This document shows positions 89 through 47,819 of a DNA stretch of 64,000 bases, in pieces; the stretch's first letter is position 1; each line of letters begins with the position of its first letter. The notes below the pieces were generated by a model that saw only the letters and a program-made list of their open reading frames with translations, ran no database searches and was not told the DNA's origin. The stretch is from Escherichia coli. Lineage in GTDB: Bacteria > Pseudomonadota > Gammaproteobacteria > Enterobacterales > Enterobacteriaceae. Location: the NCBI RefSeq assembly GCF_003334765.1, contig NZ_QOWT01000007.1, one strand, 5' to 3'. Position numbers and translations under genes: made by a program.

Positions 89-1855
89 TTATTCCGTGAC
101 TTCCAGCGTAGTGAAGGCAAACTTCTCGCCATCAAATAGCCCCTGACTGGTTAGTTTTAGCGCGGGGATCACTGGCAGAGAAAGAAACGCCATCTGAATA
201 AACGGCTCATCGGGTAACGGACCGCATTCACGGGCGGCGGCTTTCAAGGCGTCAATTTGTTCCGCCAGCGACTGCGCCGTGTCGGTGCTCATCAGCCCGG
301 CAATGGGTAACGGCAGATGACTTTGTACCTGGCCGTTACGTACCACGCACAGCCCGCCGCCATCCTGAATCACCTGATTGACCGCCAGCGCCATCTCTTC
401 GGCACTGCGACCGATCACCACAATATTATGGCTGTCATGGCTGACCGTCGCAGCCAGCGCACCTTCATTCAGTCCAAAGCCGCCAAGCAAACCACAAGCC
501 GGAGCCAGCCGTTGCCCGTAACGCTCAAGTACGGCAATAAAGCTCACATCATCGCGATCAAAACCATTTTCGCTGTAGACGCTGGAGTGGGAGTGCGTAA
601 TCAATTCGTTATGGATGACGTCAATGACCCGATAGCGTTTTCCGGGCGTAAATTGCAGGGCAAAGTCGCTGGCGGAAACTGGCTGGCGGGCAATGGTGTT
701 GCCATATGGCGGAGCGGATTGTGCCAGTCTCGCCGACTCTTCCGCCTGTAAGGTTTGCGCATCAATCGGCTCGCCTTTCACCAGTACCTGCTGCACCGTG
801 ACCTTACGCGCATCGCTCAACAGGACGATATCGGCCTGCTTGCCGGGTGCCAGTAAGCCGAGGTGATTCAGACCAAAGTGGCGCGCCGTCGACCAGCTGG
901 CGACGCGATATGCCACATGCAGCGGCACATTGTGTTGTTCGATCAGGCGGCGAATTAAGGCATCGATGTGTCCTTCATGGGCGATCTCCCACGGGTTACG
1001 GTCATCGGTACAGAGCATGCATTGCGGGCTGTTAAATTCGTTGATCAACGGTGCCAGCGCGTTGAGATTGCGGGCAGCGGACCCTTCGCGGATCATCAAC
1101 GACATGCCGAGTTGTAATTTCCGGCGTCCTTCTTCCAGCTGATAACTTTCGTGGCAGTTTTCAATACCCGCAGTAATATAGGCGTTAAGTTCTTTACCAC
1201 CCAAACCCGGGCAGTGACCGTCCAGCGTCAGGTGGCGAAATGCATCCAGTTTATCGAGCAGCGCATTCTGCCCGCTAATTACGCCAGGGTAGTCCATCAT
1301 TTCTGCAAGGCCGGTAACCTGCGGATGGTCCCGCCAGGCGAGCATCTGTTCAAGGGTAAAACTGGCACCGTTAACATCGCAGCCTTCCAGGGCGGGTACG
1401 CAAGAGCTGACCTGTAAGTACTGGTTTTGCCTTGCCTGTTCGGCACAGCGGGCAAACCAGGCGAATCCGGCTTCGCCCATCACGTTGACGATTTCATGAG
1501 GGTCGCAAATAACGGTCGTCAGGCCGCGCGGCAGGGTAGCGGTTTCAAAAGTGACCGGCGTCATCATGCTGGATTCAATATGCAGGTGAGCATCAATAAA
1601 CCCTGGCACCGCCGTTGCGCCGCGAGCATCAATCCGCTGCAAAGCCGGAGCATCAGTGTATTCTGCGCCAACACCGGCAATGTAACGTCCTTTAATCACA
1701 ATTGGGCCGGAAATTTCTCCGCCATTGATCAGGTCGAGAATAGAGACATTATCAATAATATAATCGGCAACAGCGTCGCCACGGGAAACGGCTAACAATT
1801 CCTGGTATTCAGCCCGGCTAATGTGATGAAATTTATGGTTAATAGAATTATTCAT
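89..1855 (-). CDS. ade: adenine deaminase
   Basis: 588 aa ORF; N-terminus [21 protein letters not shown] and metal-dependent hydrolase motifs ([12 protein letters not shown]) recognised as E. coli Ade. Confidence 0.9.
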
Positions 1856-2029
1856 ATTTTTCTCATTTTGATTTTATCAATTTGATTATTATTTATCATA
1901 AAGAAACGTCGCGAGATTATTAAAGAATATCCATTAATGTGCAATTGAAATGTGATAATTATCACTGAACCGTTGTTGTCATTTGTTTTACAAAAGCAAG
2001 GGATTAAATCTCCTCCAATGGACAAAAAA

Positions 2030-3364
2030 ATGAATAATGACAATACCGATTACGTGAGTAATGAATCAGGGACGCTTTCGCGATTATTTAAACTACCTCA
2101 GCATGGGACCACCGTCCGCACAGAATTGATTGCGGGGATGACCACTTTTTTAACCATGGTGTACATCGTTTTTGTGAACCCGCAAATCCTCGGCGCGGCA
2201 CAAATGGACCCGAAAGTGGTGTTTGTTACCACCTGTTTGATTGCCGGTATCGGCAGTATTGCGATGGGGATATTTGCTAACTTACCCGTGGCGCTGGCTC
2301 CGGCAATGGGGCTGAACGCCTTCTTTGCCTTCGTGGTCGTGGGGGCGATGGGCATCTCCTGGCAGACCGGGATGGGCGCAATATTCTGGGGCGCAGTTGG
2401 ACTATTTTTGCTCACGCTGTTTCGTATCCGGTACTGGATGATCTCCAACATTCCCTTAAGTTTACGTATTGGTATCACCAGCGGAATTGGATTATTTATC
2501 GCCTTAATGGGATTAAAAAATACTGGCGTTATTGTCGCCAATAAAGACACGCTGGTGATGATTGGCGATTTAAGTTCTCACGGCGTGTTGTTAGGTATTT
2601 TAGGGTTTTTTATTATAACCGTGTTGTCATCACGTCATTTTCATGCCGCGGTGCTGGTTTCTATTGTGGTGACGTCTTGCTGTGGATTATTTTTCGGTGA
2701 TGTTCATTTTAGCGGCGTCTATTCCATTCCGCCTGATATTAGCGGCGTCATTGGTGAAGTAGATTTGAGCGGCGCGTTAACACTTGAACTCGCCGGTATC
2801 ATTTTCTCCTTTATGCTGATCAACCTATTTGATTCATCAGGAACATTAATTGGTGTAACTGATAAAGCGGGCTTAATAGATGGTAACGGTAAATTCCCCA
2901 ATATGAATAAGGCGCTGTATGTTGATAGCGTCAGTTCGGTGGCGGGTGCGTTTATCGGCACCTCGTCTGTTACTGCCTATATTGAAAGTACTTCTGGTGT
3001 GGCAGTCGGTGGCCGCACGGGGCTGACTGCGGTTGTGGTTGGCGTTATGTTCCTGTTGGTTATGTTCTTCTCACCGCTGGTGGCGATAGTTCCTCCTTAC
3101 GCAACCGCCGGAGCGTTAATCTTTGTTGGCGTGCTGATGACTTCGAGCCTGGCGCGCGTTAACTGGGATGATTTTACCGAATCGGTGCCTGCGTTTATTA
3201 CCACGGTGATGATGCCCTTTACTTTCTCGATCACCGAAGGGATTGCACTCGGCTTTATGTCGTACTGCATCATGAAAGTATGCACCGGGCGCTGGCGCGA
3301 TCTGAACCTGTGTGTGGTGGTGGTCGCAGCTCTGTTTGCACTGAAGATTATTCTGGTGGATTAG
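2030..3364 (+). CDS. adeQ: adenine permease (NCS2/AzgA family)
   Basis: ORF 1952..3364; start placed at MNNDNTDYV (444 aa), divergent from ade. Confidence 0.85.
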   Translation: MNNDNTDYVSNESGTLSRLFKLPQHGTTVRTELIAGMTTFLTMVYIVFVNPQILGAAQMDPKVVFVTTCLIAGIGSIAMGIFANLPVALAPAMGLNAFFAFVVVGAMGISWQTGMGAIFWGAVGLFLLTLFRIRYWMISNIPLSLRIGITSGIGLFIALMGLKNTGVIVANKDTLVMIGDLSSHGVLLGILGFFIITVLSSRHFHAAVLVSIVVTSCCGLFFGDVHFSGVYSIPPDISGVIGEVDLSGALTLELAGIIFSFMLINLFDSSGTLIGVTDKAGLIDGNGKFPNMNKALYVDSVSSVAGAFIGTSSVTAYIESTSGVAVGGRTGLTAVVVGVMFLLVMFFSPLVAIVPPYATAGALIFVGVLMTSSLARVNWDDFTESVPAFITTVMMPFTFSITEGIALGFMSYCIMKVCTGRWRDLNLCVVVVAALFALKIILVD

Positions 3365-4079: not shown

Positions 4080-5270
4080 ATGAGTGAATTTATTGCCGAA
4101 AACCGCGGCGCGGATGCCATCACCCGACCGAACTGGTCAGCCGTTTTCTCGGTGGCGTTTTGTGTCGCCTGTCTGATTATCGTTGAGTTTTTGCCCGTCA
4201 GTTTGTTGACGCCAATGGCCCAGGATTTAGGCATTTCGGAAGGGGTTGCCGGGCAATCGGTGACCGTGACCGCCTTTGTGGCAATGTTTGCCAGTTTGTT
4301 TATTACCCAGACAATTCAGGCTACTGACCGCCGCTACGTTGTTATTTTGTTTGCCGTTTTGCTGACGCTCTCCTGCTTGCTGGTTTCCTTTGCTAACTCA
4401 TTCAGTTTGCTTTTAATCGGTCGTGCCTGTCTGGGGCTGGCGCTGGGCGGGTTCTGGGCGATGTCGGCGTCGCTGACCATGCGTCTGGTGCCGCCGCGTA
4501 CGGTGCCGAAGGCGCTGTCGGTGATCTTCGGCGCGGTTTCTATTGCGCTGGTGATTGCCGCGCCGTTGGGCAGTTTTTTAGGCGAGCTTATCGGTTGGCG
4601 CAATGTCTTTAATGCGGCGGCGGTGATGGGCGTGCTGTGTATTTTCTGGATTATCAAATCATTGCCTTCACTGCCAGGCGAACCCTCGCATCAGAAACAA
4701 AATACTTTCCGCTTATTACAACGTCCGGGTGTGATGGCAGGGATGATCGCCATCTTCATGTCTTTCGCCGGGCAGTTTGCTTTCTTCACGTATATTCGCC
4801 CGGTGTATATGAACCTGGCGGGATTCGGCGTGGATGGCTTAACGCTGGTGCTGTTGAGTTTTGGTATCGCCAGCTTTATTGGTACGTCGCTTTCGTCGTT
4901 CATTCTTAAACGTTCGGTAAAACTGGCCTTAGCAGGCGCGCCGTTAATACTGGCTGTGAGTGCGTTGGTACTGACGTTGTGGGGAAGCGATAAAATCGTT
5001 GCTACCGGCGTGGCGATTATCTGGGGGCTAACTTTTGCATTGGTTCCCGTCGGCTGGTCAACGTGGATCACCCGCTCGCTGGCCGATCAGGCAGAAAAAG
5101 CCGGGTCTATTCAGGTGGCGGTTATTCAGCTTGCTAATACCTGTGGCGCGGCAATCGGCGGTTATGCGCTGGATAATATTGGTCTGACTTCGCCGTTGAT
5201 GTTGTCCGGCACATTGATGTTGCTGACTGCATTGTTGGTTACTGCAAAGGTGAAAATGAAGAAATCCTGA
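4080..5270 (+). CDS. nepI: MFS purine ribonucleoside efflux pump
   Basis: ORF 3915..5270; start placed at [10 protein letters not shown] (396 aa); multi-TM MFS pattern. Confidence 0.85.
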
Positions 5271-5310
5271 TATCAGGTAAAGAAGCGTTGGTCAGTAGTT
5301 GTTGCTGTTC

Positions 5311-5604
5311 TTACATATCCGGGCATTCTACCTTACCCAACGCTTCCCAATAATTGCTCTGATTATTACGTTCCATCGCCACGATGGCCTCGCGTATATG
5401 TTGTTTATTGTTTTCATCTGACAACATTAACTTTTCCCACGCTTCATCTGATAATGACGCCTGTGGCGTGCAAATTTTACGTAAATCTTGTAATACCGTG
5501 GTTTTCTCTTTTGCGGACTGCAGTGAGCTAAAAGGCGACTCGGCGTATACGATGCCTGGCATAGCGAAAAAAGTGAAAATAAGCAGTAGTGTCGTTGGTT
5601 TCAT
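5311..5604 (-). CDS. yicS: secreted small protein of unknown function
   Basis: 97 aa ORF with N-terminal signal peptide MKPTTLLLIFTFFAMPGIVYA. Confidence 0.75.
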   Translation of the reverse strand: MKPTTLLLIFTFFAMPGIVYAESPFSSLQSAKEKTTVLQDLRKICTPQASLSDEAWEKLMLSDENNKQHIREAIVAMERNNQSNYWEALGKVECPDM

Positions 5605-5825
5605 GGATTCAACCTTTTACAAATGTGTATCGAATGAAGCATAAGTGTAGTTTGCTTTCATCGCTCTCATCATGCTGTACGAAACGCGCTTGCGTGGTCA
5701 GTAAGAAGTGCCAGACTTTATATTCCACTTTTATTCCTTTTTATTCTTATCGATAGCGTTTCGTTTTTTAAACCGCAGCGACCTTACCGCTATAGTCAGG
5801 TAATCATTAATAAAAGGATAAAAAA

Positions 5826-6644
5826 ATGAAACTGACAACACATCATCTACGGACAGGGGCCGCATTATTGCTGGCCGGAATTCTGCTGGCAGGTTGCGAC
5901 CAGAGTAGCAGCGATGCAAAACACATTAAAGTTGGCGTTATAAATGGCGCAGAACAAGATGTCGCGGAAGTCGCTAAAAAGGTGGCAAAAGAGAAATATG
6001 GCCTCGATGTTGAACTGGTAGGATTTAGCGGTTCGTTGCTACCGAACGATGCGACAAATCATGGCGAACTTGATGCGAATGTCTTCCAGCATCGACCCTT
6101 TCTTGAACAAGATAATCAGGCGCATGGTTATAAACTGGTAGCGGTGGGAAATACGTTTGTCTTCCCTATGGCGGGTTATTCCAAAAAAATCAAAACCGTG
6201 GCGCAAATAAAAGAAGGCGCGACAGTGGCGATCCCCAACGACCCGACCAACCTTGGTCGCGCACTTTTACTGTTGCAAAAAGAGAAGCTAATTACTCTGA
6301 AAGAGGGAAAAGGGTTATTACCTACCGCGCTGGATATAACCGATAATCCTCGTCATTTGCAGATTATGGAACTCGAGGGGGCGCAGCTCCCGCGCGTACT
6401 GGATGATCCCAAAGTTGATGTAGCGATTATCAGCACCACTTACATTCAGCAGACCGGGCTTTCTCCGGTGCACGACAGCGTATTTATTGAAGATAAGAAT
6501 TCGCCGTATGTGAATATTTTGGTGGCACGGGAAGATAATAAGAATGCAGAAAACGTGAAGGAATTTCTGCAATCTTATCAATCACCCGAAGTCGCTAAAG
6601 CGGCAGAAACCATTTTTAACGGTGGCGCGGTGCCTGGCTGGTAA
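5826..6644 (+). CDS. nlpA: lipoprotein-28, methionine-binding NlpA family lipoprotein
   Basis: 272 aa; lipobox LLAGC after signal peptide; MetQ/NlpA-like sequence. Confidence 0.9.
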   Translation: MKLTTHHLRTGAALLLAGILLAGCDQSSSDAKHIKVGVINGAEQDVAEVAKKVAKEKYGLDVELVGFSGSLLPNDATNHGELDANVFQHRPFLEQDNQAHGYKLVAVGNTFVFPMAGYSKKIKTVAQIKEGATVAIPNDPTNLGRALLLLQKEKLITLKEGKGLLPTALDITDNPRHLQIMELEGAQLPRVLDDPKVDVAIISTTYIQQTGLSPVHDSVFIEDKNSPYVNILVAREDNKNAENVKEFLQSYQSPEVAKAAETIFNGGAVPGW

Positions 6645-6647
6645 TTC

Positions 6648-7571
6648 TCACTTATGCCGCGCCGGACGATTTATTTTTCTGGCGCGGCGACGGGAATCCA
6701 TTGAAATCAAAATCACCGATGACAGAATCAGCAGCGTTCCCAGCCAGTCCGGTAATGTGAACGTGATCCCCAGCAACAGCAAAGAGAGTAGCGCGCTACT
6801 TAATGGTTCTGCACAGCTCAAAATGCTGGCTTTTGGACCGCCAATTAATTGTGCTCCTTTCAGGTACAGACTAAATGTCAGGGACGTACCAATGACCACC
6901 AAATAAAAAAACGCCAGAATCAAACTGCCGTTAACGACAAAGTTTGTTCCTTGTCTGGCATAAAAAGGCAACAGAATCAGACCGCCAATCAGCATACTCC
7001 AGCCGACGACTGGTAACGTGCCATAGCGGGCAATTAGCGTTGAGGGATAGGTGGTATAGAATGCAGCAGCAAATGCCGAGGCAATGCCCCAGAACAACGC
7101 GGCAGGAGAGATCGATAATGACGTCGGATTACCGTGTGTCACCAATAAAAAAGTCCCGACCAGCGATGTCAAAATAGCGCAGAAAACCAGAATGCCCGGG
7201 CGCGATTTACGCACCAGTGAGAACCAGGCGACGATAATCGTCGGTGAGAGGAATTGCAGCACCGTTGCCGTGGCTGCGTTCGATTTTTCGATGGTTAGCA
7301 AAAAAGTGAGCTGTACAGTTAGCGCGCCAACCACGGAAAAAATCAGCAGGCTAATGGCATCTTTATGATTGTTAATAATAGAAAAGATTTTATCGCCATG
7401 AACAAATGACAGCGTCAGTAGAATCAAACCGGCGAATATCAAACGCGTCATAGTCAAAAACTGCGACGACATCTGGCTTTGCTCCATGATGTATTGCGCG
7501 CAGACCCCTGAACTTCCCCACAACACGGCGGCAATCAGAACGTTCAGCATCCCCTTTCTGGTGGAACCCAT
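6648..7571 (-). CDS. yicL: EamA/DMT family inner membrane transporter
   Basis: 307 aa polytopic membrane protein; position between nlpA and setC. Confidence 0.8.
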
Positions 7572-7681
7572 TTTTCCCTCTGCATACTGTTTTGTCGTTT
7601 ATGTATGCAGGCATGATAGCAAAAATGGCGAGGATGGCTCTGTTTGCGCCACGCCGATTTTTCTTAGCCCAGACTGGTGAG

Positions 7682-8866
7682 CTAAATATCTTTAATAAAC
7701 AGCAGGCAAATCATCGCAATACCCAACATCCCTATCGCCAGCCAGAACAACGCATGGTAGCTCCAGATTTCAACCATAATTCCGTCAACAGAGCCGGCGA
7801 TAATCCAGCCGACGCGTGAAGTATTTGCATATAACGTTGTCGCAGAGCCTATTTTTTCAGGCATCAAGTCCTGAAAATAAAGCATGCCGATACCACAGAG
7901 AATACCAAGGAAGATGGCATTAAGAATTTGCAATTCCAGCTCAACCGCCGGAGTCGTCGCCATGAGTACGCTGGCGTAAAAACACATTCCACTCACGATA
8001 GCAATGAGCATTAATAGTCGCTTGCCAATACGTTTCATGTAATAGCCTGCGATTAACATCATCGGAATTTCCAGACCGGCAGCGATACCAATCATTTCTC
8101 CAGCCAGTTTATCGGTTAGATGCAGTTCATCAATAATAAATAGCGGCATATTTATCATGTAGAGATTATTCGCCGCCCACATCATTGAACAGACCACAAA
8201 AAGTAGCCGCGTATCCCGCTTCCTGTGGGTGGAGGGTAAAATTTCTACGGGTTGGGTAACGACAGGAATATTTCTTTGTATTGATGGCAAAAACAACCAG
8301 ACTATCAGTCCGCAAACAACAAATGCGATGGCAGCGGTGAGATACATCACTTTAAAACTAAATCCCATTGCCAGTTCATAAGCGAGCGGTGGCCCGATAA
8401 CCCAGGCAAGCGAGATCTGAGCACGTAAAAATGTACTGAACATGACCGTCTCACGGCCTGTTCTGTCGGCGTGTTCACGGGCGAGGGCGAACATTTGCGG
8501 GTTTGCGGTGGAAGCAAAACTACTCAGAAGTACGCCCGTTGAGAGGAGAATGAAGTAGTTGCGATTCCACGCAAAAAGCGTGCAGGCCAGCACTCCAAAT
8601 AAGCAACATAGCAGAATCAGTAATTTACGGTCGCCTTGTTTATCGGAGTGCCTTGCCAGAAATTGACTGACCAGAATTCCCATAATAGCGCTACCGGTGA
8701 AGAAAAAACCTACCATTATAGGACGGGCTTTCAGTTCATCTGCGAGGAATATACTTAGGGTAGGAGTCTGAAGAGCGCCCGCAATACCCGTCAGAAAGGC
8801 GACAAGTAAAAATGCCGCGGCAGTGAGATCAAGTATTTTTGATGGAGTGGTAGCCGTTTTTTGCAT
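7682..8866 (-). CDS. setC: MFS sugar efflux transporter SetC
   Basis: 394 aa MFS protein adjacent to selC. Confidence 0.85.
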   Translation of the reverse strand: MQKTATTPSKILDLTAAAFLLVAFLTGIAGALQTPTLSIFLADELKARPIMVGFFFTGSAIMGILVSQFLARHSDKQGDRKLLILLCCLFGVLACTLFAWNRNYFILLSTGVLLSSFASTANPQMFALAREHADRTGRETVMFSTFLRAQISLAWVIGPPLAYELAMGFSFKVMYLTAAIAFVVCGLIVWLFLPSIQRNIPVVTQPVEILPSTHRKRDTRLLFVVCSMMWAANNLYMINMPLFIIDELHLTDKLAGEMIGIAAGLEIPMMLIAGYYMKRIGKRLLMLIAIVSGMCFYASVLMATTPAVELELQILNAIFLGILCGIGMLYFQDLMPEKIGSATTLYANTSRVGWIIAGSVDGIMVEIWSYHALFWLAIGMLGIAMICLLFIKDI

Positions 8867-9502
8867 TCTTCTGAATCACCGGGCGAAAAAATATAACTGA
8901 GTTACAAATAAGTACCAGTCGAATGAGTATTGTATTAAGAATTTTTGAGTATCGCTGATACAACCAGAAAGCAATGCTAGCGCAATATTATAGGGCCAGC
9001 AATTGAGATTATTAGTAAAAGCATGTTAAGAATTAATTACCGAATTTATATATTAATTATAGTAAGGCAATGAGCTATTTTTGATAGTAAAAATAAAACA
9101 AGTTGATTTGATATATTAAATGAACAAATTAATCTTGATGGCAGTCTGATTATTGGTGAAGTTTATAGTCAGTTTTTTTCGCCAGCGGTTAAAGAAATAG
9201 AATAGTCGTATAAAAAAGGGTGTTCTGGGGCGAGTAAAACAACATCTTCACCTTAATGGCGATACAGTTGGCTGAGAGTCAGCAGGGGGGCAAATCACCT
9301 GCAAATAAACACGGCGCATACTGGCGTGAATATCGCGGATGCGTTCGAGGACAGAAGAACCGACAGGCGGATTCTTCAGCCGCTCATCGTCCATCACAAA
9401 ACCTTAGACCAGGTATTCCTGAAGCCGATTGAATATTGAGCAGTAGAAAATATCTGGATTGACAGTATTACAAGGGGTTGGAGAACGTCAGGAGAGGCAT
9501 TT

Positions 9503-9597
9503 TGGCGGAAGATCACAGGAGTCGAACCTGCCCGGGACCGCTGGCGGCCCCAACTGGATTTGAAGTCCAGCCGCCTCACCGGAGACGACGATCTTCC
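9503..9597 (-). tRNA. selC: tRNA-Sec (selenocysteine tRNA)
   Basis: Minus strand reads GGAAGATCGTCGTCTCCGGTGAGGCGGCTGGACTTCAAATCCAGTTGGGGCCGCCAGCGGTCCCGGGCAGGTTCGACTCCTGTGATCTTCCGCCA, the 95-nt selC sequence with long extra arm and UCA anticodon. Confidence 0.95.
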
Positions 9598-9889
9598 GCG
9601 CCTCGATTGCTACATGGAGGCGGGGCGCATTATAGCTACTTCCTTGAGTTTCTACATCCCCCAGATCAGTTTTTTCCGCCTAATACACGCAGCGTATTAT
9701 CACGAAAGCATTATAGTTCATATAAAATCCATATTTTACAATGATATATGAGCGGAATTAACGCTACCACGATCACATAAAACAAGAATCATAAATTAAT
9801 AACCAGATATCGGAATATTCGCTCTCACAGGGATGGTTTACAAAATGCGTTATCGGTCTCAGCACCCCTATAGCATCAAGGAAAAGTAG

Positions 9890-11272
9890 ATGAAGAGTGA
9901 AGTGTTGTCCGTTAAAGAGAAAATTGGTTATGGCATGGGAGACGCCGCCAGCCACATTATTTTCGATAACGTAATGTTATATATGATGTTCTTTTATACC
10001 GATATTTTTGGCATTCCTGCCGGATTTGTCGGAACCATGTTTTTGGTCGCTCGTGCACTGGATGCGATTTCCGATCCTTGCATGGGGTTGTTGGCCGATC
10101 GAACGCGCTCTCGCTGGGGTAAATTTCGTCCGTGGGTACTGTTTGGCGCACTGCCATTTGGGATCGTCTGTGTACTGGCCTATAGCACGCCAGATCTCAG
10201 TATGAACGGAAAAATGATTTATGCAGCAATTACTTACACCCTACTTACCTTACTTTATACCGTCGTCAATATCCCTTACTGCGCATTGGGTGGTGTAATC
10301 ACCAATGACCCGACTCAGCGTATCTCGCTGCAATCCTGGCGTTTTGTGCTGGCGACCGCGGGAGGCATGCTTTCTACGGTTCTGATGATGCCACTGGTTA
10401 ATTTAATTGGTGGTGATAATAAACCACTCGGTTTCCAGGGTGGTATCGCGGTCCTTTCCGTGGTGGCATTCATGATGCTGGCATTCTGTTTCTTCACCAC
10501 TAAAGAACGCGTTGAAGCACCACCTACAACGACGTCTATGCGGGAAGATTTACGTGATATCTGGCAAAACGACCAGTGGCGGATTGTCGGTTTACTAACC
10601 ATTTTCAATATCCTGGCGGTGTGCGTACGCGGTGGAGCGATGATGTATTACGTCACATGGATTTTGGGTACGCCGGAAGTGTTTGTCGCTTTTCTCACCA
10701 CTTATTGCGTGGGTAACCTGATTGGTTCCGCTCTGGCAAAACCGCTGACCGACTGGAAATGTAAAGTCACTATTTTCTGGTGGACGAACGCCCTGCTGGC
10801 AGTGATTAGCCTCGCGATGTTCTTTGTTCCCATGCAGGCCAGCATCACTATGTTTGTCTTCATCTTCGTGATTGGTGTGTTGCATCAACTGGTGACACCT
10901 ATCCAGTGGGTAATGATGTCCGATACCGTCGACTACGGCGAGTGGTGCAATGGTAAACGCCTGACCGGGATCAGTTTTGCTGGCACGCTGTTTGTGCTCA
11001 AACTGGGGTTGGCCTTCGGCGGCGCTCTTATCGGCTGGATGCTGGCTTATGGCGGATATGATGCGGCAGAAAAAGCGCAGAACAGCGCCACGATTAGCAT
11101 CATTATTGCGCTATTCACGATTGTTCCGGCGATCTGTTATTTGCTGAGCGCGATTATCGCTAAACGCTACTACTCACTCACGACGCACAATCTGAAAACC
11201 GTTATGGAACAGCTGGCCCAGGGCAAACGCCGTTGCCAGCAACAATTCACCTCTCAAGAAGTGCAGAACTAA
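9890..11272 (+). CDS. yicJ: GPH-family (MelB-like) sugar:cation symporter
   Basis: 460 aa; GPH family N-terminal pattern (LSVKEKIGYGMGD); followed 10 bp later by yicI. Confidence 0.85.
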   Translation: MKSEVLSVKEKIGYGMGDAASHIIFDNVMLYMMFFYTDIFGIPAGFVGTMFLVARALDAISDPCMGLLADRTRSRWGKFRPWVLFGALPFGIVCVLAYSTPDLSMNGKMIYAAITYTLLTLLYTVVNIPYCALGGVITNDPTQRISLQSWRFVLATAGGMLSTVLMMPLVNLIGGDNKPLGFQGGIAVLSVVAFMMLAFCFFTTKERVEAPPTTTSMREDLRDIWQNDQWRIVGLLTIFNILAVCVRGGAMMYYVTWILGTPEVFVAFLTTYCVGNLIGSALAKPLTDWKCKVTIFWWTNALLAVISLAMFFVPMQASITMFVFIFVIGVLHQLVTPIQWVMMSDTVDYGEWCNGKRLTGISFAGTLFVLKLGLAFGGALIGWMLAYGGYDAAEKAQNSATISIIIALFTIVPAICYLLSAIIAKRYYSLTTHNLKTVMEQLAQGKRRCQQQFTSQEVQN

Positions 11273-11281
11273 GGAACGGCA

Positions 11282-39877: not shown

Positions 39878-40667
39878 ATTAGAAGAGCCACTTGCCACAC
39901 TCTGGCGTGGTAAAGATGCCTTTGCAGAAGTTAAAAAACTGAATGGCGAGGTCTTCCGTGAACTGGAGACGCGTCGCACATTACGCTTTGAACTGGCCGG
40001 CAAAAGTTATTTCCTCAAATGGCACAAAGGGACGACCCTAAAGGAGATTATAAAAAATCTGCTCTCATTGCGGATGCCCGTTTTAGGTGCAGACAGAGAG
40101 TGGCACGCTATTCATCGACTGCATGATGTCGGTGTTGATACGATGCACGGAATAGGATTTGGTGAAAAAGGGTTAAATCCATTAACTCGCACATCATTTA
40201 TTATTACCGAAGATCTCACTCCCACAATTAGCCTTGAAGATTATTGTGCAGATTGGGCGGTCAACCCGCCTGATGTACATATTAAGCGTATGCTGATCGC
40301 GCGTGTGGCAACCATGGTGCGCAAAATGCATGCAGCAGGGATTAATCACCGTGATTGTTATATCTGCCACTTTTTACTCCATTTGCCATTTACTGGCCGG
40401 GAAGATGAATTAAAAATTTCGGTTATCGATCTGCACCGGGCACAGATACGTGCAAAAGTACCACGTCGTTGGCGGGATAAAGATTTGATTGGTTTATATT
40501 TCTCATCAATGAATATTGGTCTGACGCAGAGAGATATCTGGCGATTTATGAAGGTTTATTTTGGGATGCCTTTACGCGATATTTATAGACTTGAGATTGA
40601 TTTACTTAAAAAGGCAAGGATTAAAGCAGGAAAAATAGAAGCAAGAACAATAAGAAAAAACTTGTAA
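39870..40667 (+). CDS. waaP: LPS core heptose(I) kinase
   Basis: 265 aa; kinase-like HRDCYICHF motif; 8-nt overlap with waaG. Confidence 0.9.
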
Positions 40668-40699
40668 ATAGTATTTTATTACAAAAAGGGATTCTAAAA

Positions 40700-41680
40700 T
40701 TGTTGAAATATAGAAACTTCGTTGCTAAGAAGAAAAATTTATACCAAAACGAAGTGTCGTATGTTAAAAATTTACATATTGCACTATGCTTTGACCGTGA
40801 ATTCATAATGCCAGCGGGTGTTGCATTATATTCAATTATATCCAACAATAGACATATTAACCTTCATTTTCACCTTCTTATATCAGGCATAGAAGAAAAG
40901 GAGTGTTCAGCTTTTTACGAACTAGAAGGTCCTAATACATCAATATCTGTATATTATATAACTGATAAATTTGACATTAATCCGGATACATTAGTTCTTG
41001 GTATTCCTTTATCAACATGTTTACGTTTTTTAATCCCAGAAGTTATTGATGATAAAATAAATAAGATACTTTATCTTGACTGTGATGTCATATGTAATGG
41101 TCCTTTAGATGAACTGGTTGATTATAATTTAAATGCTGATATTGCATGTGTAATTCCAGATTCGCCAGAAATGCAAGAACGTGTAAAAAAATTAGACTAT
41201 GGCATTGAGTTTATTAATTATTTTAATGCCGGGGTTATGTTTATTAATACCAGCGAATGGAAAAAAAATAATATAACACAAAAAGCGTTAGAAATGATCA
41301 ACAGTGGAAAAGTATATAGGTATGCAGATCAGGATGTGCTCAATATTTTACTTAATGGACGAGTGCATTACCTTGATAAGAAGTACAATAATAAGACAAC
41401 ATTGTCAGTACGATGTGATGAAGAACAAAAAAACTTGCCCAACACAATTATAATGCATTATGTTACCCAGAATAAACCATGGTACAAAATATTTAGAGCA
41501 CAAAATTTTGATCATTATTTTTCAAATTCTCCTTGGAAGAACCATAAAAGAAATCTAGCTCCATCATCAAGTGAGATTAGGTTAAAGTCTAAAGTTTTTT
41601 GGCTAGAAGGAAAATATTGTAAAGCCATTTCTTATTATTATAAGTATTTACTTGTTAAATTATTTGGCTTAAAGATTTAG
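40700..41680 (+). CDS. GT8-family LPS core glycosyltransferase at the position K-12 gives to waaS
   Basis: 326 aa; GT8 motifs shared with the two downstream paralogs (LYLDCDVICNG, YFNAGVMFIN, DQDVLN, KPW); low GC. Confidence 0.6.
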   Translation: MLKYRNFVAKKKNLYQNEVSYVKNLHIALCFDREFIMPAGVALYSIISNNRHINLHFHLLISGIEEKECSAFYELEGPNTSISVYYITDKFDINPDTLVLGIPLSTCLRFLIPEVIDDKINKILYLDCDVICNGPLDELVDYNLNADIACVIPDSPEMQERVKKLDYGIEFINYFNAGVMFINTSEWKKNNITQKALEMINSGKVYRYADQDVLNILLNGRVHYLDKKYNNKTTLSVRCDEEQKNLPNTIIMHYVTQNKPWYKIFRAQNFDHYFSNSPWKNHKRNLAPSSSEIRLKSKVFWLEGKYCKAISYYYKYLLVKLFGLKI

Positions 41681-41693
41681 CTGGAATGAAATT

Positions 41694-42773
41694 ATGAAAA
41701 TAGCCTTTATTGGCGAAGCTGTTTCTGGATTTGGCGGCATGGAAACAGTCATTCGTGATGTTATTACTACCTTCAGGCAACAACATATCCAAAGTGAAAT
41801 TTTTTTCTTTTGTCGTAATGACAAAATGGATAAGGGATGGCTGGAAGGTATTAAGTACTCGTGTTCATTTTCCAATATTCGCTTAGGTTTTTTGCGTCGC
41901 GCGAAACATATTCATGCTTTAAGCAAATGGCTTCATGATTATCAGCCAGATGTTGTTATTTGTATTGACGTGATCTCGTGTTTGTATGCGGCCAAAGCTC
42001 GTAAAAAATCGGGGATTGATGTACCTGTATTTTCATGGCCGCATTTTTCTTTAGATCATAAAAAACATGCCGAATATATCACCTGTGCCGACTATCATTT
42101 AGCCATCAGCTCTGGTATTAAACAGCAAATGATTAGCCGGGGTGTACCAGAATCGACAATAAACGTTATTTTTAATCCCGTTGAGGCGAAAAATTCAGTC
42201 ATTCCTGCACCCGGGGAAGGCGAAACGGCAACATTCATTTATGTTGGGCGCATGAAATTTGAAGGCCAAAAGCGCGTAAAAGATCTGCTTGATGGCTTAT
42301 CACAAGTGCAAGGTGACTGGAAACTTCATGTATTGGGAGATGGCTCCGATTTCGAAAAATGCCAGGCTTATGGTAGAGGATTAAATATTGATGATCGAAT
42401 TGTCTGGTATGGTTGGCAACAACATCCCTGGAAATTAGTTCAGCAAGATATTAAAAAAGTGAGTGCATTATTACTCACGTCATCTTTTGAAGGTTTCCCA
42501 ATGACTCTACTTGAAGCCTTGTCGTGGGGGATCCCTTGTATCAGTGCAGATTGTGTCTCCGGGCCTGTTGATATCATTCAGCCTGATGTTAATGGTCATT
42601 TATATCAACCGGGGGATATGACCGGTTTTGTTGCTCTTCTCAATAAATACATAGCCGGTGAAATTCACATCGCACATGAAAAAATTCCGGCGTCGATCGA
42701 TAAATTTTATCAACCGAAATATTACGACAGATTGCAAAAGATAATTATTTCTGTTATTTCCCGGAGGAAATAA
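41694..42773 (+). CDS. waaB: LPS alpha-1,6-galactosyltransferase (GT4)
   Basis: 359 aa MKIAFIGEAVSGFGGMETVI...FFFCRNDKMDK; closely matches recalled WaaB. Confidence 0.8.
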   Translation: MKIAFIGEAVSGFGGMETVIRDVITTFRQQHIQSEIFFFCRNDKMDKGWLEGIKYSCSFSNIRLGFLRRAKHIHALSKWLHDYQPDVVICIDVISCLYAAKARKKSGIDVPVFSWPHFSLDHKKHAEYITCADYHLAISSGIKQQMISRGVPESTINVIFNPVEAKNSVIPAPGEGETATFIYVGRMKFEGQKRVKDLLDGLSQVQGDWKLHVLGDGSDFEKCQAYGRGLNIDDRIVWYGWQQHPWKLVQQDIKKVSALLLTSSFEGFPMTLLEALSWGIPCISADCVSGPVDIIQPDVNGHLYQPGDMTGFVALLNKYIAGEIHIAHEKIPASIDKFYQPKYYDRLQKIIISVISRRK

Positions 42774-43792
42774 TGCAGCAGGTTTTTTTCCAGGAGACTG
42801 AGTTTCTCAATTCGGTTATTGATTATAATCATAAAATAGAAGCAGAAAATCTTTGTCTGGATATTGCTTATGGGACTGACAAAAATTTTCTTTTTGGATG
42901 CGGAATATCGATTGCTTCAATATTAAAATATAATGAAGGAAATCAATTATGCTTTCATATTTTTACTGATTATTTCGGTGATGACGATCGCAAATATTTT
43001 GATGCCCTGGCCAGGCAATATAAAACAAGAATTAAGATATATTTAATTAATGGTGATCGACTCCGTTCATTACCCTGCACCAAGAACTGGACTCATGCTA
43101 TTTATTTTCGTTTTGTTATCGCCGATTACTTTTTTAATAAAGCACCCAAAGTTCTTTATCTGGATGCAGATATTATTTGTCAGGGAACTATAGAACCACT
43201 TATCAATTACACGTTTTCTGAACATACAGTCGCAATGGTTGTTACAGAAGGACAAAAAGACTGGTGGGCAAAACGTGCTCATTCGTTAGGTGTTGCTGGG
43301 ATTGCTAATGGTTACTTTAACTCCGGTTTTTTACTGATTAATACTAATCAATGGACGAATGAGCGGGTTTCTGCACGGGCCATTGCAATGTTAAGTGATC
43401 CAGAGATAGTCAAAAAAATAACACATCCTGATCAGGATGTATTAAATATGTTATTGGCAGACAAACTTGTTTATGCTGATATTAAATATAACACTCAGTT
43501 TAGTTTAAATTATCAACTAAAAGAAAGTTTTAAAAACCCAGTAACTAACGATACAGTTTTTATTCATTATATTGGTCCAACTAAACCCTGGCATGACTGG
43601 GCCTGGGATTATCCAATATCACAAGCTTTTATGGCGGCAAAAAATGCTTCACCATGGAAGGATACTGCGTTATTGAAACCGGTTAATAGTAATCAATTAA
43701 GATACAGTGCTAAACATATGTTGAAAAAAAAGCAATATATCAAAGGATTTGGCAACTATCTTTTGTATTTTATAAAAAAGCTAAAGCATTAA
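42773..43792 (+). CDS. waaO: GT8 LPS outer-core alpha-1,3-hexosyltransferase (WaaI/WaaO-like)
   Basis: 339 aa GT8 paralog; 1-nt overlap with waaB stop. Confidence 0.65.
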   Translation: MQQVFFQETEFLNSVIDYNHKIEAENLCLDIAYGTDKNFLFGCGISIASILKYNEGNQLCFHIFTDYFGDDDRKYFDALARQYKTRIKIYLINGDRLRSLPCTKNWTHAIYFRFVIADYFFNKAPKVLYLDADIICQGTIEPLINYTFSEHTVAMVVTEGQKDWWAKRAHSLGVAGIANGYFNSGFLLINTNQWTNERVSARAIAMLSDPEIVKKITHPDQDVLNMLLADKLVYADIKYNTQFSLNYQLKESFKNPVTNDTVFIHYIGPTKPWHDWAWDYPISQAFMAAKNASPWKDTALLKPVNSNQLRYSAKHMLKKKQYIKGFGNYLLYFIKKLKH

Positions 43793-43802
43793 TACTGATA
43801 AT

Positions 43803-43931
43803 CTATACTCTAAATAATTCGAGTTGCAGGACAAAAAGCCAGTGGCGTTTTGAGGAACGCTTGCGTTGGCCCTGAAATGCCGAGTAACTCGCCGATGCAG
43901 CACATGCAACTTGAAGTATAACGAGTATATA
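43803..43931. repeat. ERIC/IRU-like imperfect palindromic intergenic repeat, variant centre
   Basis: Ends CTATACTCTAAATAATTCGAGTTGCAGG ... GCACATGCAACTTGAAGTATAACGAGTATATA are inverted copies of each other, a sequence class I recognise as ERIC arms; the centre lacks the canonical ERIC core. Confidence 0.45.
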
Positions 43932-43955
43932 AAGTAATGATATAAGGATAGCCTT

Positions 43956-44972
43956 GTGAACTCATTTCCTGCCATAGAGATAGATAAAGTTAAAGCCTGG
44001 GATTTTAGGCTTATTGATGAAAATACTGCTGAAAGTTTAAATGTTGCCTATGGTGTCGATTCCAATTATCTTGATGGTGTAGGTGTTTCCATTACTTCAA
44101 TTGTCATTAATAATCGACATGTTAATCTTGATTTTTATATTATTGCTGATGTTTATAACGACGATTTCTTTCAAAAAGTTGAGAAACTTGCTGAGCAATA
44201 CCAATTAAGAATCACACTTTATAGAATAAATACTGATAATCTTCAGTGCCTGCCTTGTACACAAGTCTGGTCAAGAGCAATGTACTTCCGTTTATTTGCT
44301 TTTCAATTATTGGGAGTAACACTTAATCGTTTGCTTTATCTTGATGCCGATGTAGTTTGTAAGGGAAATATTAGTCAACTATTGCATTTAGAGTTTAATG
44401 GAGCGGTGGCTGCAGTAGTCAGGGATGTAGACCCAATGCAGGAAAAGGCGGTAGTCAGATTATCTGATCCTGAACTTCGGGGGCAGTATTTTAATTCTGG
44501 TGTCGTTTACTTAGACCTAAAAAAATGGACAGAAGCAAAACTAACCGAAAAAGCACTGTCTATTCTTATGAGTAAAGATAGTATTTATAAGTATCCTGAC
44601 CAGGACGTTATGAATGTCCTACTAAAAGGGATGACAATATTCCTGCCACGTGAGTTCAATACTATATATACAATAAAAAGTGAGTTAAAAGATAAAACGC
44701 ATCAAAAATATAAAGAGTTGATAAAAGAGGATACTCTTCTTATTCATTATACTGGGGCCACCAAGCCGTGGCACAAATGGGCAATTTATCCATCGGTAAA
44801 ATACTATAAAATAGCTTTAGAAAGATCCCCCTGGAAAGATGACTCACCACGAGATGCAAAATCAATTATTGAATTCAAAAAAAGATATAAACATCTGTTA
44901 GTGCAACATCATTATATCTCAGGACTCATTGCAGGAGTGTGTTATCTTTGCCGAAAATATTACCGTAAATAA
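43956..44972 (+). CDS. waaJ: GT8 LPS outer-core alpha-1,2-glucosyltransferase
   Basis: 338 aa; N-terminus and body closely match recalled K-12 WaaJ/WaaR (…SFPAIEIDKVKAWDF..., C-terminal HHYISG.IAGVCYLCRKYYRK). Confidence 0.8.
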   Translation: MNSFPAIEIDKVKAWDFRLIDENTAESLNVAYGVDSNYLDGVGVSITSIVINNRHVNLDFYIIADVYNDDFFQKVEKLAEQYQLRITLYRINTDNLQCLPCTQVWSRAMYFRLFAFQLLGVTLNRLLYLDADVVCKGNISQLLHLEFNGAVAAVVRDVDPMQEKAVVRLSDPELRGQYFNSGVVYLDLKKWTEAKLTEKALSILMSKDSIYKYPDQDVMNVLLKGMTIFLPREFNTIYTIKSELKDKTHQKYKELIKEDTLLIHYTGATKPWHKWAIYPSVKYYKIALERSPWKDDSPRDAKSIIEFKKRYKHLLVQHHYISGLIAGVCYLCRKYYRK

Positions 44973-44989
44973 CATTTAACTGGTTTAAC

Positions 44990-45688
44990 ATGATTCAGAA
45001 GAATAAAATCAAAGATTTAGTTGTTTTTACCGATGAAAATAACTCAAAGTATCTCAATGTATTAAATGACTTTCTTTCTTATGATATTAATATCATCAAA
45101 GTTTTTCGTTCTATAGATGATACAAAAGTCATGCTTATTGATACCGATTACGGTAAATTGATACTTAAAGTTTTTTCGCCTAAAGTAAAACGCAACGAAC
45201 GTTTCTTTAAATCTCTTTTAAAGGGAGATTATTATGAACGCCTTTTTGAGCATACTCAAAAAGTGCGTAACGAGGGGCTACATTCTCTCAATGATTTTTA
45301 TTTGTTGGCAGAACGGAAAACATTACGTTTTGTCCATACTTATATCATGCTTATCGAATATATCGATGGCGTAGAGTTGTGTGATATCCCCGATATTGAT
45401 GAAACTTTAAAAAATAAAATTCAACAATCAATTCGTTCATTACACGAACACGGTATGGTATCTGGTGATCCTCACCGCGGTAATTTTATTATTGAAAATG
45501 GTGAAGTACGCATTATTGATCTTTCAGGAAAACGGGCATCTGCACAACGTAAAGCGAAAGATCGTATTGATTTAGAGCGACATTATGGTATTAAGAATGA
45601 GGTTAAAGATCTCGGTTATTATCTTTTAGTTTATCGTAAAAAAATACGTAATCTTATGCGGCGTTTGAAAGGGAAGCCAGCACGATAA
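44990..45688 (+). CDS. waaY: LPS core heptose(II) kinase
   Basis: 232 aa, kinase-like; position after waaJ. Confidence 0.85.
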   Translation: MIQKNKIKDLVVFTDENNSKYLNVLNDFLSYDINIIKVFRSIDDTKVMLIDTDYGKLILKVFSPKVKRNERFFKSLLKGDYYERLFEHTQKVRNEGLHSLNDFYLLAERKTLRFVHTYIMLIEYIDGVELCDIPDIDETLKNKIQQSIRSLHEHGMVSGDPHRGNFIIENGEVRIIDLSGKRASAQRKAKDRIDLERHYGIKNEVKDLGYYLLVYRKKIRNLMRRLKGKPAR

Positions 45689-45759
45689 AGTAAAAGTCTT
45701 ACATTTAAACGTCTTCGTCAGGACATTTCTATGCGGAGTTCTTATTTCACAGGTTTATC

Positions 45760-46569
45760 ATGAAGAATATTAGATACATTGACAAAAAAGATGTTGAAAA
45801 CCTGATAGAAAGTAAAACGTCTGATGATGTTATTATTTTTCTTTCCGGCCCCACATCGCAAAAAACACCATTGTCAGTGCTGCAGACAAGGGATGTTATT
45901 GCTGTCAATGGTTCTGCACAATATCTATTAAGTCATAATATTATTCCCTATATTTATGTACTTACCGATGTTCGCTTTTTACATCAACGGCGTGATGATT
46001 TTTATAAATTTAGCCAGAGAAGTCGTTATACCATCGTAAATGTTGACGTTTATGAACATGCTTCTGAAGAAGATAAGCGGTACATCCTTCAAAACTGCCT
46101 GGTACTACGTTCATTTTACCGCAGAGAAAAAGGTGGATTGATCAAGAAGATCAAGTTTAATATTTTGAGCCGAATTCATAAAGAGCTCCTGATCTCTGTA
46201 CCTTTTTCTAAAAAAGGTCGTCTGGTTGGCTTTTGCAAGGATATTAACCTCGGTTATTGTTCATGCCATACCGTTGCTTTTGCTGCAATCCAAATAGCCT
46301 ATTCGCTGAAGTATGCTCGTATTATCTGTTCAGGCCTTGATTTAACGGGTAGCTGTTCGCGTTTCTATGATGAAGATAAGAATCCTATGCCCTCAGAGTT
46401 GATTCGGGATTTATTCAAAATTTTACCATTTTTCCGTTTTATGCGTGAAAATATAGAAGATATCAATATTTATAATTTATCCGACGATACTGCAATTCAA
46501 TATGATATTATTCCCTATATGAAAATATCCGAAATTGAAGAGCCGTGTGTTTATGAAAAAATAAGCTAA
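45760..46569 (+). CDS. waaZ: LPS core biosynthesis protein WaaZ (KdoIII-associated)
   Basis: 269 aa; position and similarity to recalled WaaZ; low GC. Confidence 0.7.
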   Translation: MKNIRYIDKKDVENLIESKTSDDVIIFLSGPTSQKTPLSVLQTRDVIAVNGSAQYLLSHNIIPYIYVLTDVRFLHQRRDDFYKFSQRSRYTIVNVDVYEHASEEDKRYILQNCLVLRSFYRREKGGLIKKIKFNILSRIHKELLISVPFSKKGRLVGFCKDINLGYCSCHTVAFAAIQIAYSLKYARIICSGLDLTGSCSRFYDEDKNPMPSELIRDLFKILPFFRFMRENIEDINIYNLSDDTAIQYDIIPYMKISEIEEPCVYEKIS

Positions 46570-46621
46570 TATTTTATATGTGTTTATTACGTGTTATAAA
46601 TTATATTGGAGTTGGCTAATA

Positions 46622-47764
46622 ATGATTAAAAAAATAATATTTACCGTCACACCAATATTTTCTATACCGCCAAAAGGAGCTGCAGCGGTTGAAACATGGA
46701 TTTATCAGGTCGCAAAAAGACTTTCGATTCCAGTAACTATCGCCTGTATTCGAAACGAAGGTTACCCAACCTACACAAAAGTAAATGATCACTGTGATAT
46801 TCACTACATTGGTTTTAGTCGAGTCTATAAACGACTTTTCCAAAAGTGGACTCGACTTGATCCTGTGCCATATTCTCAGCGTATTTTAAATACCCAACCT
46901 AAAAACACTGATCCGAAAGACTCTGTTATTGTTATCCACAATAGCATGAAGCTGTATAAACAGATTCGTAGCAGAAGCCCTCACGCGCAGCTAGTTATGC
47001 ATCTTCATAATGCTTTCGAGCCAGGTGAGTTAGACAAAAATGCAAAGATAATTGTTCCTAGCCAGTTTCTTTTCGATTTCTATTCGGAAAAAATGCCTGA
47101 TGCAAATATTGCTATTGTGCCTAATGGTTTTTGTTCTGAATCGTATGAACAAAATAATACTGAAGATTTGAGGCAGAAACTGAACATTGATGCAAATGAT
47201 ACCGTGTTATTATTTGCAGGAAGGATATCACCAGATAAAGGTTGCCTGATGCTTATGGAGGCTTTTAATCAGCTGAATAAGATACAAGATAACCTCAAAC
47301 TGGTGATTGTCGGAGATCCTTTTGCCAGTAAAAAAGGCGAAAAAGCTGAATATCAGAAAAAAGTTCTGGATGCAGCGAAAGCTATTGGAGCGCAATGCAT
47401 TATGGCGGGTGGACAGCCTCCAGAGCAGATGCATAACTATTACCGTTTAGCAGATTTAGTTGTTGTTCCTTCTCAGGTAGAAGAAGCTTTTTGTATGGTA
47501 GCTGTTGAAGCGATGGCGGCAGGTAAACCAGTGCTTGCCAGTCAAAAAGGTGGAATTAGTGAGTTTGTTCTGGAAGGAATTACAGGCTATCACCTTGCAG
47601 AGCCTATGACATCTGAAAGTATTCTCGCGGATATTAAGCGCGTTTTGGCGGATGCTGACAGAGCTCAAATTGCTAAAAATGCCCGAAATTTTGTTTTCTC
47701 AAAATATAGCTGGGAACATGTTACTCAGCGTTTTGAAGCACAAATACAAGACTGGTTTGGTTAA
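46622..47764 (+). CDS. waaK: GT4 glycosyltransferase, WaaK-like (GlcNAc transferase in Salmonella and R2 cores)
   Basis: ORF 46580..47764; start at MIKKIIFTV with GGAG Shine-Dalgarno (381 aa); GT4 EX7E-type C-terminal domain; not a GT9 heptosyltransferase like K-12 WaaU. Confidence 0.65.
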   Translation: MIKKIIFTVTPIFSIPPKGAAAVETWIYQVAKRLSIPVTIACIRNEGYPTYTKVNDHCDIHYIGFSRVYKRLFQKWTRLDPVPYSQRILNTQPKNTDPKDSVIVIHNSMKLYKQIRSRSPHAQLVMHLHNAFEPGELDKNAKIIVPSQFLFDFYSEKMPDANIAIVPNGFCSESYEQNNTEDLRQKLNIDANDTVLLFAGRISPDKGCLMLMEAFNQLNKIQDNLKLVIVGDPFASKKGEKAEYQKKVLDAAKAIGAQCIMAGGQPPEQMHNYYRLADLVVVPSQVEEAFCMVAVEAMAAGKPVLASQKGGISEFVLEGITGYHLAEPMTSESILADIKRVLADADRAQIAKNARNFVFSKYSWEHVTQRFEAQIQDWFG

Positions 47765-47782
47765 AAATTATTGGATTTGAAG

Positions 47783-47819
47783 AGCCTGCCTGAACTTAAT
47801 GTCAGGCAGGCTTTTTTTT
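47783..47819 (+). terminator. intrinsic terminator at the end of the waaQ operon, overlapping the waaL stop
   Basis: AGCCTGCCTGA-acttaatg-TCAGGCAGGCT 11-bp stem followed by T8. Confidence 0.75.

Follow-up and report, generated by a model that had tools for sequence, protein, structure and literature searches.

A rhuM remnant and an AT-rich promoter island, both probably of foreign origin, flank the free selC site of a K-12-type Escherichia coli locus

The selC-setC region of Escherichia coli K-12 serves as the reference 'empty' selC site in island studies (PMC6174562), and it is by comparison with this flank that LEE, PAI-I and further selC islands are defined. What the flank itself is made of was examined in a stretch of 64,000 nucleotides of E. 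coli (contig NZ_QOWT01000007.1; hereafter the window), for which an initial annotation had described an unoccupied attachment site next to a 636-bp AT-rich tract. With high probability, the tract is a flank of the K-12 type beside a free selC site and combines two sorts of old foreign DNA. Its selC-proximal part, 9211..9487, would be what neutral decay has left of a small rhuM islet; other E. coli (for example, LF82) keep this islet intact, and there an incomplete repeat of the selC end bounds it. The setC-proximal part, 8867..9210, would be the AT-rich and apparently acquired upstream region of setC, acting as a silenced 'promoter island' and not as an ordinary promoter. The flank used as the 'empty' reference appears itself to be a layered remnant, a point worth noting: its layers are a rhuM gene in decay, whose family is now associated with phage defence, an AT-rich block bound by H-NS and a transporter gene that was probably acquired. 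Every element of the tract (the yicT/rhuM pseudogene and the promoter island) is already annotated or published, and the understanding of the locus is thus unchanged; a modestly fresh point is the frequency with which rhuM, whole or broken, lies beside selC without an integrase across Enterobacterales. The features are listed in Table 1.

Table 1. Features of the selC-setC interval, in window coordinates.
Feature	Position	Strand	Evidence or remark
K-12-type yicL-selC haplotype (setC, promoter island and rhuM remnant)	7601..9487		blastn against LF82
setC, 394 aa, MFS sugar-efflux paralogue of setA/setB	7682..8866	-	NCBIfam TIGR00899, 646.7 bits
setC leader with ribosome-binding region	8867..8879	-	precedes the setC ATG at 8866; invariant
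AT-rich 'promoter island' upstream of setC	8880..9210		PMC3661553, Table 1, entry '3834632_331 selC(+)/setC(+) ... A'
Transition between rhuM remnant and AT-rich block, polymorphic with indels	9211..9262		21% variable columns
rhuM pseudogene fragment	9263..9424	-	tblastn against LF82 RhuM; RefSeq; MG1655 yicT
Junction segment, 63 bp, highly polymorphic	9425..9487		separates the rhuM fragment from the att-proximal spacer
15-nt spacer directly 3' of selC	9488..9502		common to all locus types examined
selC, tRNA-Sec, anticodon UCA, intact	9503..9597	-	ARAGORN; Rfam RF01852, 83.8 bits

According to ARAGORN, selC is the sole tRNA gene of the 64-kb window. It is intact, as had been described: the Rfam match agrees, and none of its 95 positions differs from K-12. 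The 3' end of selC points into the tract, and because setC occupies 7682..8866 on the minus strand, the intergenic tract from the selC 3' end to the setC start codon is exactly 8867..9502, 636 bp, in agreement with the limits first drawn for it. The comparison of these positions with K-12 MG1655, which had been proposed at the same time, gave 0 mismatches in 636 and no gap, and the gene order yicL-setC-yicT-selC-yicJ is likewise that of MG1655.

The site had been said to lack both an integrase and a direct repeat of the selC 3' end, and the searches bear this out. A tblastn search for a tyrosine integrase adjoining the selC 3' end, with one integrase family as the query (the P4-type integrase of E22), returned nothing at E <= 1 in 7500..9700 and nothing at 1e-3 across the 64-kb window. 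Pattern searches of the window that tolerated up to 3 mismatches gave no further copy of the selC 3' end, and gapped local alignment of the selC end scored 16, compared to a shuffle mean of 18.2 and a score of 45 for the LF82 positive control. A junction query spanning 9380..9620 is matched without a break in 2490 of the 5426 complete E. coli genomes, and the window falls in this class. A second junction class carries the tract together with 9503..9526, the 3'-terminal 24 nt of selC that are duplicated upon island integration, at the far end of an insertion. The junction-query class 'q109..241' begins at 9488, and at 9487/9488 the homology with the LF82, O157:H7 and 536 locus types breaks; LF82 is 100% identical to the window over 9488..9700 by blastn, and the homology stops beyond. 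Since the last 24 nt of selC and the 15-nt spacer are intact and unduplicated, islands with a P4-type integrase can still enter between selC and the tract. The selC attB is free in the usual sense, but the site is not untouched. As selC and its flank join without interruption, the description of an unoccupied attachment site is upheld, whereas the statement that the site looks empty overlooks the RhuM-family pseudogene discussed below. The same division applies to the traces of a decayed island: neither an integrase fragment nor a repeat was found, but a fragment of a cargo-type gene is present.

The integrase-bearing selC islands share this target. LEE (O157:H7), the E22 island, GIselC17584/1 and PAI-I (536) all use the selC 3' end with a 24-nt repeat; compared to these P4-type islands, the window has no integrase, repeat or cargo. 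A selC repeat of 24 bp, like that of E22, is also described in the literature (PMC6174562). In E22, selC is followed by the integrase and its 26.6-kb island, then by the 24-nt repeat, an unchanged rhuM fragment and setC. Because this island leaves the tract unchanged beyond its repeat, the rhuM remnant is independent of present-day islands. In O157:H7, on the other hand, the LEE-bearing element has replaced the tract and approximately 85% of setC. In the O157:H7 strain OK1, the LEE-bearing element ends beside a 174-bp 3' remnant of setC (locus L128, 5986..6159). Further arrangements were also seen: some strains carry IS1 copies inside the tract (NZ_CM129855.1 and NZ_CP073718.1; locus L005, 12110..14317), and in strain Z142-6 the order is setC, IS1, an integrase fragment, IS1 and selC, which is another kind of decayed island.

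The tract is of atypical composition, with 38.1% GC overall and an AT-rich core of 25-30%, compared to a window average of 49.1%. Its description as strongly AT-rich is correct for the setC-proximal part (25.4% GC in 9000..9200) but not for 9201..9502, where the GC content is 47.0%. The two AT-rich runs that had been quoted, TTAATTATAGTAAGG and ATATATTAAATGAAC, are both present. It is also true that every ORF contained entirely in 8867..9502 is shorter than 60 aa, the longest being at most 58 aa; the listed ORFs of 61 and 88 aa cross the tRNA gene. An Rfam scan at E <= 1 returned selC alone and nothing else in the tract, tandem repeats are absent, and the direct and inverted repeats of 7600..9650 do not exceed what chance would give. 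An imperfect inverted repeat (8869..8898 and 9167..9196; 21 of 30 positions complementary) brackets the AT-rich core, and by a rough estimate it is about what chance would give in 2 kb.

The selC-proximal half of the tract contains the rhuM fragment. In a tblastn search with the RhuM protein of LF82, it corresponds to amino acids 121-185 of 345, with 63% identity and E = 6e-20 (9257..9424 in a second run); at the DNA level, the identity to the LF82 gene is 75%. The fragment contains an in-frame TAG and deletions of 8 codons and 3 codons, and the N-terminal and C-terminal parts are both gone. Homology to the RhuM family (Pfam PF13310) is thus evident, and a complete, uninterrupted coding sequence is not. 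Two annotations agree. A megablast of the tract against the 5426 complete E. coli genomes led to the RefSeq label 'RhuM family protein; internal stop; incomplete' at the fragment, and the MG1655 pseudogene yicT (b4653) corresponds to 9263..9394 of the window. NCBIfam has no model for RhuM, and the literature found under the name 'yicT' consists of unrelated uses of the string. The degree of divergence suggests that the fragment may stem from a rhuM allele other than that of LF82.

The LF82 locus shows what an intact counterpart looks like. In LF82 (B2), a complete rhuM gene of 345 aa begins 52 bp from selC, in a locus without setC. Approximately 110 bp past the rhuM stop codon lies a copy of the selC 3' end that matches in 28 of 32 positions (score 45), and the DNA just inside this repeat is similar to the end of the E22 island. 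Loci of this type, with an intact rhuM directly 3' of selC, were found in 845 of the 5426 complete genomes, LF82 being the example that was inspected. By blastn, the homology between the window and LF82 stops at 7600 and picks up at 9488. As the two are homologous only outside 7601..9487, the whole yicL-selC interval exists as alternative haplotypes, and its presence varies among strains: in LF82-type strains the interval is exchanged for other DNA, namely, a hypothetical gene, the partial selC repeat and the intact rhuM. The hypothetical gene (locus L002, 4324..4821) is AT-rich, encodes 165 aa and is flanked by the selC-end repeat and yicL; neither NCBIfam nor PADLOC yields a match for it.

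The rhuM copy of LF82 and that of the window belong to the same family, lie directly 3' of selC and read away from the tRNA gene. Compared to the LF82 islet, however, the window copy retains 65 of the 345 codons, carries a stop and deletions, and has no bounding repeat. The junction segment 9425..9487 takes the place of approximately 410 bp of rhuM 5' end and leader in LF82, and its sole match elsewhere is a segment with 77% identity in one other Escherichia locus (L051). By analogy with these other strains, we infer that the rhuM remnant would descend from an integrated, att-bounded islet, although the window itself has no repeat.

How often rhuM accompanies selC was examined in species-representative genomes, which were scanned with the 26-mer of the selC 3' end; this gave 120 loci, of which 108 had at least 600 nt of 3' flank and were usable. 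A P4-type integrase is the first gene 3' of selC in 37 of the 108, and RhuM occurs anywhere on the 3' side in 22. In 13 loci (12%), rhuM is the first recognizable gene, at 60-520 bp from selC and with no integrase between them. Of these copies, six are complete or almost complete, six are truncated, and the remaining one is cut by the end of its locus; they are found in Morganella, Hafnia, Erwinia, Photorhabdus, Xenorhabdus, Providencia, Enterobacter, Kosakonia and Pseudescherichia. In Pseudescherichia vulneris, a selC-end repeat lies 111 bp past rhuM (score 35, compared to a null maximum of 27). The att-like repeats of Morganella and of an Erwinia MAG are at the expected position past rhuM, and neither is significant by itself. 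In Escherichia albertii (locus L014, +173..+2680 from selC), an integrase fragment is followed by an intact rhuM that is 87% identical to that of LF82; this tandem order suggests that a newer element was inserted between selC and an older rhuM. Two loci labelled as Bacillota and Sphingobacterium MAGs (L010 and L052) combine a selC 3' end of enterobacterial type with a RhuM that is 78% identical to that of LF82, and they are probably mis-binned or contaminant contigs.

These distributions bear on whether rhuM arrived as island cargo. It could instead be an old chromosomal neighbour of selC that decayed in place, with setC and its AT-rich leader inserted later and no mobile element involved. The 13 integrase-free loci, spread over nine genera, are what such an origin would produce, and a statistically clear selC-end repeat past rhuM was obtained in only 2 full-length cases. 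However, the partial repeats just past rhuM in LF82 and P. vulneris are a signature of site-specific integration, and the DNA just inside the LF82 repeat looks like an island terminus. In addition, a gene that comes first in 12% of the loci is patchily distributed. The presence of rhuM varies within SPI-3, the selC-linked island of Salmonella (PMC3680342); the SPI-3 gene is of the same family and likewise selC-linked, and the window has only a fragment. RhuM-family genes are moreover enriched beside type I restriction, BREX and other mobile defence loci (PMC9881135). Taken together, a decayed old neighbour is considered unlikely, and island cargo is the clearly favoured origin of rhuM.

The family has been connected with phage defence. 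The RhuM protein of LF82 matches Pfam PF13310 (Virulence_RhuM) at 6e-118 and the PADLOC candidate defence family PDC-S05 at 3e-173, and according to a preprint, one distant PDC-S05 protein with a RhuM domain gave approximately 1000-fold protection against T7 and T5. As for Salmonella, the ChIP-mini paper says of rhuM only that a sigma-70 (RpoD) site assigned to it is lost inside macrophages. A more far-reaching idea is that the rhuM islet is an anti-phage cassette of a single gene on selC, att-flanked and integrase-less, mobilized in trans by the P4-type integrases of larger selC islands and repeatedly gained and lost across Enterobacterales, the K-12 tract being its fossil; we regard this as speculative and rather improbable. 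Integrase-less elements flanked by att sites are called CIMEs, or cis-mobilizable elements. The rhuM islets of LF82 and P. vulneris resemble these in that they measure approximately 1.2-1.4 kb, contain one gene, are bounded by selC and a partial repeat, and have no integrase. In contrast to CIMEs, the mobility of the islets is putative, and the window copy has neither the repeat nor most of the gene. In a weaker variant of this idea, the fossil and the AT-rich block may have been kept because they nucleate H-NS beside the hotspot and thereby silence incoming islands in advance.

The other half of the tract is the AT-rich block upstream of setC. With 29.6% GC, 8880..9210 belongs to the lowest 1.2% of 331-bp windows. 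Positions published for K-12 were transferred to the window through the gap-free alignment of all 636 nucleotides and through the offset between the two MG1655 sequence versions, which is 1977 bp. Because the tract is identical to K-12 throughout, the H-NS and polymerase binding data published for K-12 apply to it. Panyukov and Ozoline (2013) list the selC/setC island among 78 promoter islands, score it in K-12 as H-NS-bound 'according to all studies' by ChIP, and associate it with a predicted foreign gene (PMC3661553). Unlike most promoter islands, it does not coincide with any of the long genomic islands that were predicted, both column A and column B of the table being empty (PMC3661553). 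The island is published as bound by RNA polymerase but poorly transcribed, and promoter islands are reported to form open complexes and to produce short RNAs (PMC3661553). In vitro, genomic SELEX with the sigma-S and sigma-H holoenzymes placed peaks at 3834856 and 3834954 in the selC/setC spacer (PMC5493296); these map to approximately 8986 of the window for sigma-S and 8888 for sigma-H, the latter peak being weak.

In the present analysis, a strict sigma-70 consensus scan of 8700..9950 found 1 site compared to 3.1 expected, and this site is on the wrong strand for setC. The published definition of promoter islands uses another algorithm than such a scan; as the scan shows no excess of promoter-like sites, the promoter-island label is that of the publication and not a result of this work. 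With the high-affinity motif of H-NS, 2 matches (2 mismatches allowed) fall in the island, that is, 6.0 per kb compared to 1.4 for the window, numbers too small to be given weight. From the binding reported in K-12, we infer that H-NS would silence setC. The initial annotation had proposed H-NS-bound regulatory DNA or, alternatively, a remnant; the former is right for 8880..9210 (PMC3661553) and the latter for the selC-proximal half with rhuM.

SetC has no match in the 120 selC loci of other species (0 of the 108 usable ones) and is absent from the LF82-type locus. The AT-rich part together with setC has no homologue by blastn in the same 120 loci or in the rest of the window. The setC gene was probably acquired horizontally, together with its AT-rich upstream region.

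The variation among alleles separates the two halves of the tract. Seven alleles were aligned, the window and K-12 being identical across the tract, and the estimates of constraint are those of this small set. Taking setC third codon positions as a neutral proxy (7.6% variable columns), the setC-proximal 200 bp (8867..9066) are less variable (3%), with 0 of 13 variable columns in the setC leader, and the promoter island as a whole shows 5.7%. The value is 9.9% in the rhuM fragment, where alleles differ by 1-nt frameshifting indels and a polymorphic stop, and it reaches 21% in 9211..9262 and 27% in 9425..9487, including a 15-nt deletion in one allele. The selC-proximal 290 bp as a whole vary faster than synonymous sites, with indels. 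For a sample of seven, this pattern fits a mildly constrained setC leader beside neutrally decaying DNA.

It could be argued that the tract is merely the native regulatory region of setC and that the selC site was never occupied, which was the primary reading given initially. The lack of an integrase, a repeat or a long ORF would agree with this, as would the conservation of the setC-proximal 200 bp above that of setC third codon positions and the reported binding of RNA polymerase holoenzyme in the spacer (PMC5493296). It is contradicted, however, by the RhuM match at 9263..9424, which is significant and independently annotated, by the rapid, indel-rich change of the selC-proximal 290 bp, and by the lack of setC and the tract in LF82-type and all sampled other-species loci. 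A solely native regulatory region is therefore very improbable. Even less credit is given to co-option of the remnant, in which a 49-aa ORF (9248..9397, minus strand) or a transcript of the tract would serve as a functional small protein or sRNA. This ORF overlaps yicT, and short RNAs are reported from promoter islands (PMC3661553). On the other hand, 1-nt frameshifts occur within the ORF among alleles, the TAG just upstream is polymorphic, no Rfam family except selC is found even at E <= 1, the sole terminator-like site is weak, and K-12 and RefSeq curation both regard the gene as a pseudogene. The reading retained is that of a decaying rhuM remnant next to the AT-rich setC upstream region.

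Two observations concern the wider window. Other blocks with less than 32% GC are found at 40440..49016 and 1734..2070. By K-12 coordinate mapping, assuming colinearity, the former would be the waa/rfa LPS-core cluster, in which four further promoter islands are listed (PMC3661553). In addition, the window is not K-12 throughout: over 4819..12819, 1 of 4684 nt differs from MG1655 on the setC side of selC, whereas 48 of 3317 nt differ on the yicJ side, the first at 9728. This distribution of mismatches marks an abrupt boundary, due to recombination or to a change of lineage, within 9503..9728, at or just past selC.
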